NCBI RefSeq assembly: GCF_054482595.1
Contig: NZ_CM137008.1
Length of the DNA stretch: 64,000 nucleotides
Direction: 5' to 3' (one strand)
A program made the translations under genes and the position numbers. Below, piece after piece: positions 26,725 through 28,290 of this stretch (the stretch's first letter is position 1; every line of letters starts with the position of its first letter). The notes beneath the pieces were generated by a model. The model had not been told where the DNA came from, made no database searches, and saw only the letters and a list, made by a program, of their open reading frames with translations.

Positions 26725-27192
26725 TCATCGAAGGCATTGCGTCCTGATGTATTCCTGAAGCGTTCTCAGTGCTGTTTGGTCGCGGATAATTCCGTCCCGG
26801 ATACCGAGAACGTTTCGTCCAGCAACTGGAGAGAGTTCGACGGTGGCATCATTGCCCATGCCGGAGGCGCTGGAGGTTTCAGCTGAGGATGGCACAGGGC
26901 ATTTTCCTTTGACGAGCACCCGACCACCATTATCAAGCTTGCGCCGAAGAGCATCATTTTCAGCTTTCGCATCAGCTAACTCCTTCGTGTATTTATCATC
27001 GAGTGCATCAGCATCACGCTGGCGCTGCTGCATGTGAGTAATGGTGGCGTTCGCCTTCTCCAGTTCACTGGCCTTGTTATCGCGCTGTTCTTTGTAGGCG
27101 ATTGCATTATCACGGTAATGATTAACAGCCCATGACAGGCAGACGATGATGCAGATAACCAGAGCGGAGATAATCGCGGTTACCCTGCTCAT
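26725..27192 (-). CDS. Rz: Spanin inner-membrane subunit Rz
   Basis: [30 protein letters not shown] matches lambda Rz; start placed at this Met. Confidence 0.9.
26766..26972 (-). CDS. Rz1: Spanin outer-membrane lipoprotein subunit Rz1 (embedded in Rz, +1 frame)
   Basis: [21 protein letters not shown] lipobox and proline-rich PPAPPAW region, fully nested in Rz. Confidence 0.85.
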
Positions 27193-27692
27193 TGTTGCCC
27201 CCACAAACAGACCTCACGCTCAATCTCACGACGAGTCATCAGGCCTTTCCATTGCTTACCGCCAGCGTATGCCCAGCGACGTAGCTGGTCACATGCGCCC
27301 TTGATATCGCCCTGGTTTATTTTGCGAAGAAGAGTAGATGTTCTGAAATTGCCTGCGCCCACGTTATAGACGAACGAGTAAAGAGCGCCGCGCGTTGTTT
27401 CCGGTATATCGACTTTGATGTACGGGTTAATTTGTCTGGCTACCGTGGCAAGGTCTTTATTCAGGAGGGCTTTGCATTCTGCTTCGGTATACGTTTTACC
27501 GGGAATGATGTCTTTTCCTGTATGCCCGTGACATACAGTCCATACGCCAACGATATCTTTGTATGGTATGTAGCTGACACCTTCCAGACCATCGTTACCA
27601 CTTGGCCCAGTGATTAACACAGATGCTATAGCAATAGCCCCGCCACTTATCGCCGCTATTACGCTATTTCGTAGTGCCGGTGACATTGCCAT
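27189..27692 (-). CDS. R: SAR endolysin (T4-type lysozyme with N-terminal signal-anchor-release domain), phage-21 R-like
   Basis: N-terminal Gly/Ala-rich weakly hydrophobic segment followed by lysozyme-like body; not lambda R transglycosylase. Confidence 0.85.
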
Positions 27693-27867
27693 TCAATCTG
27701 TCCTCGCGCTCTTTGCGCTTGTAGTACCAGTTGATGCCAAATGTGCCGACAGTACAAAGAATACCAATGATGACAGCCCAGTCATTCAGGGAGAGAATGC
27801 CACCCATCGCAGTCAGTCCTCCGAAGCTGTAACTGAACCATTCTCTGATTTTGTCCATACGGTACAT
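27664..27867 (-). CDS. S: Class II holin (pinholin-like) with dual-start motif M-Y-R-M
   Basis: 67-aa ORF with two hydrophobic segments and charged C-terminus; overlaps endolysin start by 29 nt; upstream stem-loop cccctcaatgaagggg before the start. Confidence 0.75.
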
Positions 27868-28290
27868 GCTCTACCCCTTCATTGAGGGGATTTGCTCTAT
27901 TTAATTAGGAATAAGGTCGATTACTGATAGAACAAATCCAGGCTACTGTATTTAGTAATCAGATTTGTTCGTGACCGATATGCACGGGCAAAACGGCAGG
28001 AGGTTGTTAGCGCAGCCTCTTGCCACCCGCTTTCACGAAGGTCATATGTAGAAGGCCGCAGCATAACTATCACTGATGAGTTCAGGATAACCAGTGGCTA
28101 CGGCTCAGTTTGGGTTGTGCTGTTGCTGGGCGGCGATGACGCCTGTACGCATTTGGTGATCCGGTTCTGCTTCCGGCATTCGCTTAATTCAGCACAAAAG
28201 GAAGAGCGCTAGTCTACCTCTATCGATTAACGGGCTTGTGGGGCAGTATCGCCGATTCACCTAACGCTCTTCCCTTTGTGATTGTAACGC

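Follow-up and report, generated by a model that had tools for sequence, protein, structure and literature searches.

Several described lysis systems resemble parts of the locus analysed here. The holin S21 of phage 21 has two TMDs and the start codons Met1 and Met4, with a basic residue between them and MDKI from Met4 onward. S21 has been reported to use both starts, and the pinholin/SAR endolysin and dual-start paradigms have been summarised (PMC9636201). The Lys residue right after the S21-68 start (Lys6 in S21-71 numbering) has been reported to time TMD1 flipping (bioRxiv 10.1101/2021.04.20.440580), and the role of the lambda sdi structure has also been summarised (PMC3359269). The SAR domain of the endolysin of phage SPN9CC has been described as functional (PMC8532960). 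For N4, lysogens with either a soluble or a SAR endolysin have been complemented (PMC12642591). Our literature search, for which the primary SPN9CC and S21 papers were beyond reach, found no direct test of hole size or start use for an HP1-family holin.

The window (the whole stretch of DNA analysed, 64,000 nucleotides) contains a lysis cassette at 26725-27900 on the minus strand, and every feature described in the original prediction was found there. Along the minus strand the order is Q, pR', leader, holin, endolysin and Rz with embedded Rz1. The features are as follows.

28426..29049, minus strand: late antiterminator Q of lambda type, 207 aa (PF03589, E = 1.3e-57).
28355..28383, minus strand: late promoter pR', from a consensus scan, with hexamers TTGACT-17-TAAATT.
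28290..28321, minus strand: promoter-proximal intrinsic terminator (tR' equivalent) of HK620/PS34 type, a 13-bp stem followed by a U-run.
28193..28280, minus strand: long hairpin in the late leader (dG = -38.4 kcal/mol, z = -4.4).
27872..28210, minus strand: leader DNA homologous to the stretch directly preceding lambda S, 339 nt, 93.5% identical to lambda 44845-45181.
27874..27889, minus strand: sdi-type hairpin CCCCU-CAAUGA-AGGGG, part of the predicted minimum-free-energy fold.
27664..27867, minus strand: class II holin of the HP1 family, 67 aa, beginning MYRMDKI (PF16080).
27189..27692, minus strand: SAR endolysin (GH24 lysozyme) of R21/RrrD type, 167 aa (PF00959, E = 9e-46).
26725..27192, minus strand: Rz i-spanin (PF03245), whose ATG overlaps the endolysin stop (ATGA).
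26766..26972, minus strand: Rz1 o-spanin lipoprotein (PF06085, E = 1e-21; phrog_3198).
26532..26551, minus strand: terminator-like hairpin downstream of the cassette, from a consensus scan, with an 8-bp stem (6 GC pairs) followed by TTTTATT.

The Pfam E-values of the cassette proteins range from 4e-21 to 9e-46, far past chance. The prophage adjoins torS in E. coli, and the 42.6 kb around the cassette form an apparently complete lambda-like genome, from the integrase to tail gene J. The cassette is apparently the late-operon lysis module of this prophage. A 50-aa ORF (26737-26585) lies downstream of the spanins, and bor is absent, unlike in lambda. Defective prophages of E. coli harbour many lysis genes, rrrD and essD of DLP12 among them, and the cassette might likewise be a decayed, non-functional remnant in a cryptic prophage. 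We regard this as very improbable, since each of the four reading frames is intact and shares 92-100% identity with genes of the plaque-forming phages SPN9CC, 21 and HK620, and the surroundings appear complete.

The mosaic nature claimed for the cassette was confirmed by comparison with sequenced phages, which identified modules of lambda, phage 21 and SPN9CC/HK620 type. Among the nearest relatives over the lysis genes is Salmonella phage SPN9CC (SPN9CC_0042/0043/0044), with 100% identity in the holin, 93.4% in the endolysin and 94.2% in Rz. Its DNA is 95.4% identical over 28110-26732, leader hairpin included, but SPN9CC has another Q and two tRNA genes upstream, and its hairpin loop is CAATAA, without the loop ATG. 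Genes 23-13-19-15 of Salmonella phage PS34 (AJ011580) encode a lambda-type Q (99%), the holin gp13 (98.5%) and a SAR endolysin (92.2%), and PS34 has the same short tR' hairpin; its gp15 (Rz) is of another type, being 145 aa long and 53% identical.

Like the late control region of lambda, this locus has a Q (99.5% identical to lambda Q) and a pR' that is the same as lambda's up to and including the transcript start. DNA identity with lambda is 97.8% across 29059-28326, and a lambda pR' region, as originally proposed, is thus present. The match covers Q, pR' and the initial transcribed sequence but not the 6S/tR' segment, which has been swapped for a short terminator that HK620 and PS34 share and lambda lacks; identification of this terminator as lambda tR' was rejected. 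Its fold had dG = -20.6 kcal/mol and z = -5.1, and none of 200 shuffles was as stable. No tRNA genes were found between Q and the holin, whereas P21 and SPN9CC have them there.

The leader bears out the claim of a lambda-like region upstream of the holin. Its homology with lambda stops 4 nt short of the holin ATG. Arms corresponding to those of the long leader hairpin occur in lambda, with two changes that look compensatory, around a different loop. The sdi-type hairpin ends 6 nt upstream of ATG1, and its 3' arm is the G-run Shine-Dalgarno sequence for ATG1. It aligns column for column with CCCCU-UAUUG-GGGGU of lambda. The original prediction had spoken only of a parallel with sdi; the alignment goes further and shows homology. 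Since lambda DNA makes up the 339 nt in front of the holin, the hairpin is best read as lambda's sdi itself, slightly diverged. The two loci share Q, pR' and this upstream DNA with the sdi-position hairpin and G-run, but they differ in what follows: lambda has the three-TMD holin S with Met1/Met3 and a transglycosylase endolysin, whereas this locus has an unrelated class II holin with Met1/Met4 and a SAR lysozyme.

The 60-nt fold containing the 5-bp sdi-type hairpin had z = -1.6, with 17 of 200 shuffles equally stable, and so is not beyond chance by itself. We consider the hairpin significant because of its positional homology with lambda sdi and because equivalent hairpins occur in diverged relatives. 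Five such relatives carry, by inspection, a hairpin that sequesters the SD at the same place with other stem sequences, including CCGA/UCGG and CACUCC/GGGGUG. In close viral loci the hairpin was found in 80/80; these loci gave no covariation signal because they are near-identical (the holin is almost always at least 97% identical) and the stem is invariant. An Rfam search of the leader gave nothing at gathering thresholds, and a permissive search gave only chance-level matches (E about 0.6). The hairpin loop holds an in-frame ATG (a mini-ORF, MKG-stop), which on a reading that we consider improbable might control initiation at a third level.

The holin had been called phage-21-type, which did not hold at the family level. 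It scored 75.1 bits against PF16080 (Phage_holin_2_3; cutoff 28.8 bits, E = 4.4e-21) and 19.5 bits against the P21 S family PF04971, below the 26-bit cutoff. The identical gene in RefSeq is named 'HP1 family phage holin', and NCBIfam has no model matching the holin or Rz1. Phage 21 was represented by record OL657228, identified through a 100% tblastn match to the S21 sequence. BLASTP of the holin against S21 gave no alignment even at E <= 10. Alignment with S21, proposed as a check, detected homology only at the profile level, where hhalign of the holin family profile against S21 gave a probability of 96% (E = 4.3e-9, 59 columns); 45 of 68 family members also matched PF04971. By profile comparison the holin is a distant homologue of S21, within holin superfamily II with its two-TMD architecture. 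A closer likeness to S21 through the shared ATGGACAAAATC at Met4 was rejected, this being a family-wide MDK/MEK motif and not a recombination patch.

The HP1-family holins are widespread: they occur in at least 511 viral contigs and make up 591 clusters at 50% identity, and the holin of this locus was found in 83 of the 5,426 complete E. coli genomes. The hol product of Haemophilus phage HP1, from which the Pfam family takes its name, is 41% identical to the holin of this locus over 41 aa, and HP1 Lys likewise has a hydrophobic N-terminus. HP1 Hol differs in its length (78 aa), its longer C-terminal tail and the lack of an M-x-R-M start, and it lies in a P2-like myovirus context behind an unrelated leader.

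Residues 10-27 of the holin are weakly hydrophobic (mean hydropathy about 0.6-1.1) and consist of 50% Gly/Ala/Ser/Thr/Cys, a SAR-like composition. Residues 30-49 form a strongly hydrophobic TMD2 (1.6-1.9) resembling that of S21. In the hhalign alignment, Met4-Asp-Lys of the holin is paired with Met4-Asp-Lys of S21, and the small or polar TMD2 residues G35/T39/T42/N46 are paired with S44/G48/T51/N55. The holin is 6 residues shorter in the TMD1/loop region; its linker between TMD1 and TMD2 has about 2 residues versus about 8 in S21, and TMD1 dynamics may differ from those of S21 because of this much shorter linker.

On its sequence the endolysin is an R21-type SAR enzyme, as originally predicted. 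It is 92.7% identical to R21, its N-terminus is Gly/Ala-rich, and its hydropathy profile matches that of R21. Among PDB entries it matched 3HDE (E = 3e-104), 4ZPU (about E = 1e-104) and 3HDF. RefSeq places its start at the second ATG, 27686. Phage 21, the source of R21, differs from this locus in its regulatory DNA, since Q, pR' and the leader here are of lambda type and not of 21 type.

An R21-type endolysin (at least 86% identity) lay next to the holin in each of the 80 viral loci. Q was of lambda type in 24 of these loci, of P21 type in 35 and of other types in 19; Rz was of HK620/SPN9CC type in 33, of PS34 type in 37 and of lambda type in 1. Among diverged relatives (46-79% identity), six of seven holins had behind them a PF00959 lysozyme whose N-terminus is hydrophobic. 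The constant linkage of holin and SAR endolysin in the 80 loci supports a pinholin mechanism, and we infer that the holin acts as a pinholin. Membership of holin superfamily II need not mean a pinholin: T7 gp17.5 serves a cytoplasmic lysozyme, large-hole holins occur elsewhere in superfamily II and in other phages with a SAR endolysin, and SAR endolysins can pair with canonical holins. The holin might then be a canonical class II holin forming large, non-specific holes, with the SAR pairing serving timing control only. Its position outside the S21 family by Pfam cutoff and BLASTP, together with the short linker, would fit such a holin. We nevertheless consider large holes unlikely, given that the soluble lambda-R type never appeared among the 80 loci although Q and Rz swap freely, that TMD1 is SAR-like in composition, and that small and polar residues in TMD2 are paired with such residues of S21.

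Like S21, the holin has the two in-frame starts expected from the original prediction, at codons 1 (27867) and 4 (27858), 9 nt apart with Arg3 between them. The 67-aa form from Met1 is a putative antiholin and the 64-aa form from Met4 a putative pinholin. M-[Y/Q/H/T]-R-M-[D/E]-K was found in 18 of 24 aligned relatives, and Lys6 is nearly invariant among the aligned relatives. Many distant family members have the counterpart of Met4 as their very first residue. Among 140 distant representatives, just 18 had M-x(1-4)-M with an intervening K/R at the called N-terminus. The G-run precedes Met1 and Met4 by 6 and 15 nt here, compared with 7 and 16 nt in S21 and 6 and 12 nt for the two lambda starts.

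Use of both starts, and their regulation by the hairpin, are inferred from these patterns. Alternatively, a single start may be used, with the upstream ATG-x-CGT and the hairpin being non-regulatory passengers of the lambda-derived leader. The hairpin does not differ from shuffles, and its stem is invariant in near-identical loci, with no covariation there. Relatives in a T7-like context (L091 and L094) are without the hairpin, and in a further relative (L095) the upstream ATG runs straight into a TAG stop. Several observations make such passengers improbable. All 18 aligned relatives with the extension keep Met1 and Arg3 while residue 2 varies, dual starts with K/R turn up again in distant family members whose leaders are unrelated (MRMHEK, MKAMEK, MSKMSK), and SD-sequestering hairpins recur with other stem sequences. 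The spacing is also like that of S21, for which use of both starts was reported (PMC9636201).

The spanins had been described as lambda-like, which stood for the N-terminal half of Rz and failed for its C-terminal half and for Rz1, both of HK620/SPN9CC type. Rz is 91.6% identical to HK620 Rz and 61% identical to lambda Rz. Its first ~83 codons are lambda-like, with DNA 88% identical to lambda only over 27192-26945 within Rz. Together, Rz (PF03245) and Rz1 (PF06085) form an embedded two-component spanin of lambda type, with Rz1 lying wholly within Rz in another frame. Rz1 has the lipobox VVGC and the proline-rich segment KPPAPPAW, and shares 53-56% identity with the Rz1 proteins of lambda and P21 across its first 45 aa. 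The Rz proteins of SPN9CC and HK620 have been listed in the Lambda i-spanin family, and their o-spanins form a separate 'HK620' family (Kongari et al. 2018, PMC6139136). With identity limited to 45 aa and the SPN9CC and HK620 o-spanins classed apart, assignment of Rz1 to the lambda o-spanin family was rejected. HK620 has PS119-like spanins, and its DNA shows 95.5% identity across 27192-26526, a stretch that covers the embedded Rz1 and the 50-aa ORF; there, however, lambda-type S and R precede the spanins.

Taken as a whole, the cassette probably works as a lambda-Q-driven lysis module with a dual-start HP1-family pinholin, a SAR endolysin and Rz/Rz1. The lambda-type Q would load on RNA polymerase at pR' and drive readthrough of the nearby terminator into the cassette. 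On the holin mRNA, Met1 and Met4 would be read behind the sdi-derived hairpin, whose 3' arm is the G-run Shine-Dalgarno sequence, and the hairpin would set the ratio of the 67-aa to the 64-aa product. The extra Arg3 would keep the N-terminus and TMD1 of the 67-aa form in the cytoplasmic leaflet, so that this form acts as an antiholin, and the 64-aa form would be the active holin. Its weakly hydrophobic TMD1 would exit the membrane and TMD2 would oligomerise to small channels, so that the membrane is depolarised. Depolarisation would let the R21-type SAR endolysin leave the inner membrane and refold into an active lysozyme, and the Rz/Rz1 spanin complex would then disrupt the outer membrane.

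The cassette is an ordinary, already known lambda-like prophage lysis gene set, with modules known from SPN9CC, PS34, 21, HK620 and lambda. It illustrates textbook lambdoid mosaicism: each module is already found among sequenced phages, and functional boundaries mark the joints, which lie in the pR' leader, 4 nt ahead of the holin ATG, where the endolysin starts and in mid-Rz. The endolysin and the regulatory elements of lambda and phage 21 have already been studied experimentally. A bolder reading, to which we give little credence, is that the HP1-family holins are a second, sequence-distinct pinholin lineage that came under lambda sdi control by recombination at the start codon. If true, it would mean that the timing device of a three-TMD canonical holin is portable to an unrelated two-TMD pinholin. 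Its wide occurrence would make the HP1-family holin a convenient second model of pinholin/antiholin control.

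The lysis cassette at 26725-27900 is encoded on the minus strand, and all five proteins (holin, endolysin, Rz, Rz1 and Q) were placed unambiguously by Pfam and PHROGs. The locus is arranged as follows, with Pfam matches in brackets for the genes.

29049-28426, minus: Q (PF03589, E = 1e-57)
28383-28355, minus: pR' (TTGACT-17-TAAATT)
28321-28290, minus: short, strong terminator hairpin (dG -20.6 kcal/mol, z -5.1)
28280-28193, minus: long leader hairpin, stem ~20 bp (dG -38.4 kcal/mol, z -4.4)
27889-27874, minus: 5-bp hairpin
27867-27664, minus: holin, 67 aa (PF16080, 75.1 bits)
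27692-27189, minus: endolysin, 167 aa (PF00959, E = 9e-46), overlapping the holin 3' end
27192-26725, minus: Rz (PF03245, E = 6e-29), its ATG overlapping the endolysin stop
26972-26766, minus: Rz1 (PF06085, E = 1e-21), wholly embedded in Rz

Window positions 6500-49100 are 99.5% identical to a part of E. coli EC5502 containing a lambda-like prophage that adjoins torS. The prophage gene order is integrase, exo/bet/gam, cIII, repressor, O/P, nin region, Q, lysis, terminase, head and tail to J, and the prophage looks complete rather than decayed. Rfam matches at gathering level were found for IS009 RNA (2049-2247, minus), the prophage's lambda cIII thermoregulator (38967-39025, plus) and a cspA-type thermoregulator in host DNA past the prophage end (50526-50948, minus).

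The mosaic was mapped by BLASTN against lambda, phage 21, PS34, SPN9CC and HK620, together with protein comparisons and a leader alignment. The segment 29059-28326 is lambda DNA (97.8%) and carries Q (99.5% as protein), pR' and the earliest transcript bases. From ~28326 to ~28280 the aligned leader is like HK620 and PS34, not lambda, and the lambda 6S/tR' segment is swapped for a short terminator common to those two phages. Lambda similarity returns over 28210-27872 (93.5%, lambda 44845-45181), which corresponds to the DNA directly upstream of lambda S, and stops 4 nt before the holin ATG. SPN9CC is the best match over 28110-26732 (95.4%), the phage 21 match (90%) extends from 27687, precisely where the endolysin starts, to 26945 in mid-Rz, and the HK620 match spans 27192-26526 (95.5%). 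At the 28110 joint (minus), similarity to SPN9CC and phage 21 starts right after the tRNA-Asn/tRNA-Thr genes of those phages; ARAGORN found no tRNA gene at the joint or anywhere in the window, and lambda likewise has none at the matching position.

The terminator (28290-28321, minus) follows the pR' start by only ~30-55 nt, standing in for the 194-nt 6S RNA/tR' segment plus orf-64 of lambda, and the HK620 record labels the matching stretch 'qut'. The lambda arms equivalent to the long hairpin (28193-28280) are CACAACAGGTAAGAGCA and TGCTCTTTCCGTTGTG, with two apparently compensatory differences from the window and a differing loop.

The holin is 100% identical to SPN9CC_0042 and 98.5% identical to PS34 gp13, with no BLASTP match to S21 or lambda S. 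The original prediction of a phage-21-type holin fails at the family level: the protein reaches 75.1 bits against the HP1 family, and its score against the P21 S family, 19.5 bits, is below the cutoff of 26 bits. An exhaustive profile search gave relatives in 591 clusters at 50% identity. When an alignment of 68 diverse relatives was compared with S21 by hhalign, the probability was 96% (E = 4.3e-9, 59 columns), and 45 of the 68 members cross-matched PF04971. Met4-Asp5-Lys6 of the holin pairs with the same residues of S21, Tyr13 with Tyr13, Trp30 with Trp36, and G35/T39/T42/N46 with S44/G48/T51/N55; G35, T42, N46 and Y49 are near-invariant in the holin family. On the profile match, the cross-matches and the aligned residues, the holin and S21 are distant homologues of shared architecture. 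Like S21, the holin has a weak hydrophobic segment (10-27, 50% G/A/S/T/C) followed by a strong one (30-49), but its TMD1/loop region lacks 6 residues relative to S21, and its inter-helix linker is only ~2 residues.

Aligned relatives (59-99% identity) start M-[Y/Q/H/T]-R-M-[D/E]-K. Met1 and Arg3 are kept, with residue 2 variable, in 18 of 24, and five of the other six are merely called from Met4. Many representatives of the wider family start right at the Met4 equivalent (MDK.../MEK...), while M-x(1-4)-M with an intervening K/R occurs in 18/140 (e.g. MRMHEK, MKAMEK, MSKMSK). This pattern fits Met4 as a conserved core start, before which a positively charged N-terminal extension recurs. The same arrangement has been reported for S21-71/S21-68 and lambda S107/S105 (PMC9636201), and the Lys directly after the S21-68 start (Lys6 in S21-71 numbering) has been reported to time TMD1 flipping (bioRxiv 10.1101/2021.04.20.440580). 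In contrast to the dual start of other relatives, a relative of 48% identity (L095, 1480-1510) reads ATG TAG ATG GAT AAG, the upstream ATG being halted just before the conserved MDK start.

Upstream of the starts, the window reads AAAUCCCCU-CAAUGA-AGGGGU-AGAGC-AUG and lambda AAAUCCCCU-UAUUG-GGGGU-AAGAC-AUG. The predicted parallel with lambda sdi, which sets the holin:antiholin ratio (summarized in PMC3359269), was thus borne out: judged by this alignment, the 5-bp hairpin appears to be lambda's sdi, slightly diverged, on lambda-derived DNA. In alignments of the region, the SD-to-start distances are 6 nt (Met1) and 15 nt (Met4) in the window, 7 nt (Met1) and 16 nt (Met4) in S21, and 6 nt (Met1) and 12 nt (Met3) in lambda. 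Taken by itself, the hairpin is weak (z = -1.6; 17/200 shuffles fold equally well). Its stem is unvarying across 80 near-identical loci. Five diverged relatives have a hairpin in the equivalent position, with a G-run SD in the 3' arm and differing stems: CCCC/GGGG (L096), CCGA/UCGG (L089), CACUCC/GGGGUG (L090 and L093) and CCCCG/GGGGG (L095). The hairpin is absent from this position in L091 and L094, two relatives in T7-like contexts.

Within the hairpin loop lies an ATG that shares the holin frame and opens a mini-ORF, ATG AAG GGG TAG (MKG-stop, 27871-27882, minus), that finishes 3 nt before holin ATG1. In two viral-contig loci (L063, L068) the TAG is TGG or CAG, and the holin would lengthen to 72 aa. 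The mini-ORF is probably incidental, because the SPN9CC-type loop (CAATAA) lacks the ATG.

The endolysin is of phage 21 type as predicted, with 92.7% identity to R21, 93.4% to SPN9CC and 92.2% to PS34 gp19, and it aligns with the RrrD (4ZPU) and R21 (3HDE, 3HDF) structures at E ~1e-104. Rz is 94% identical to SPN9CC, 92% to HK620, 61% to lambda and 53% to PS34 gp15. The supposed lambda-like character of Rz/Rz1 holds for the Rz DNA at 27192-26945 (88%), to which lambda similarity within Rz is confined, but not for the remainder of Rz or for Rz1, whose similarity to lambda and P21 (53-56% identity) is confined to its first 45 residues. The i-spanins of SPN9CC and HK620 belong to the Lambda family and their o-spanins to a separate HK620 family (Kongari et al. 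2018, PMC6139136).

A 50-aa ORF with an N-terminal hydrophobic helix (26585-26737, minus) begins at the Rz stop. It is hypothetical in RefSeq, falls in PHROG 11822 (function unknown) and is intact with few substitutions in ~20 related phage or viral-contig loci, HK620 among them; its product may be a so far unrecognised small membrane protein accompanying HK620-type spanins. Between the cassette and terminase, where lambda has bor, are two opposite-strand cargo genes (25533-26233, plus); they encode a 141-aa DUF1398 protein, in phrog_413 (labelled 'head protein'), and a 77-aa member of the YlcI/YnfO family.

Among 5,426 complete E. coli genomes, the 237 nt of holin and leader matched 86 records in 83 genomes, and 84 of these records reach >=99% identity. 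For the entire 2.6-kb arrangement, 24 genomes reach >=80% coverage, and 3 carry it at 99.9-100% identity. In the phage collection no single record reaches 80% coverage of it; every module is present there, and PS34 (AJ011580) already joins a lambda-type Q to the same holin and a SAR endolysin. The cassette is therefore of an already known kind, a new shuffle of known parts. NZ_CP130669.1 (E. coli SM107, 45333-47933) is 100% identical to the 2.6-kb region; at 111,450 bp, far below chromosome size, this record could be a phage-plasmid or an unplaced contig.

Shin et al. (2014) reportedly produced combinations of the SPN9CC lysis proteins (holin, endolysin and Rz/Rz1) and identified the holin as key, a result that does not distinguish pinholin from canonical action. 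Superfamily II membership alone is not known to imply small holes. Among 80 viral contigs carrying the holin at >=97% identity, the next gene was an R21-type endolysin in all 80 (minimum 86% identity to R21), whereas Q was of lambda type in 24, P21 in 35, other in 19 and outside the locus in 2, and Rz of HK620/SPN9CC type in 33, PS34 in 37, lambda in 1 and lost at the locus end in 9. In 6 of 7 diverged relatives a PF00959 lysozyme whose N-terminus is hydrophobic and Gly/Ala-rich follows the holin, and HP1 Lys likewise has a hydrophobic N-terminus. With its partner constant and Q and Rz varying, the holin travels with the SAR endolysin as a unit, and this co-travel is the best indirect argument that it may act by a pinholin mechanism.
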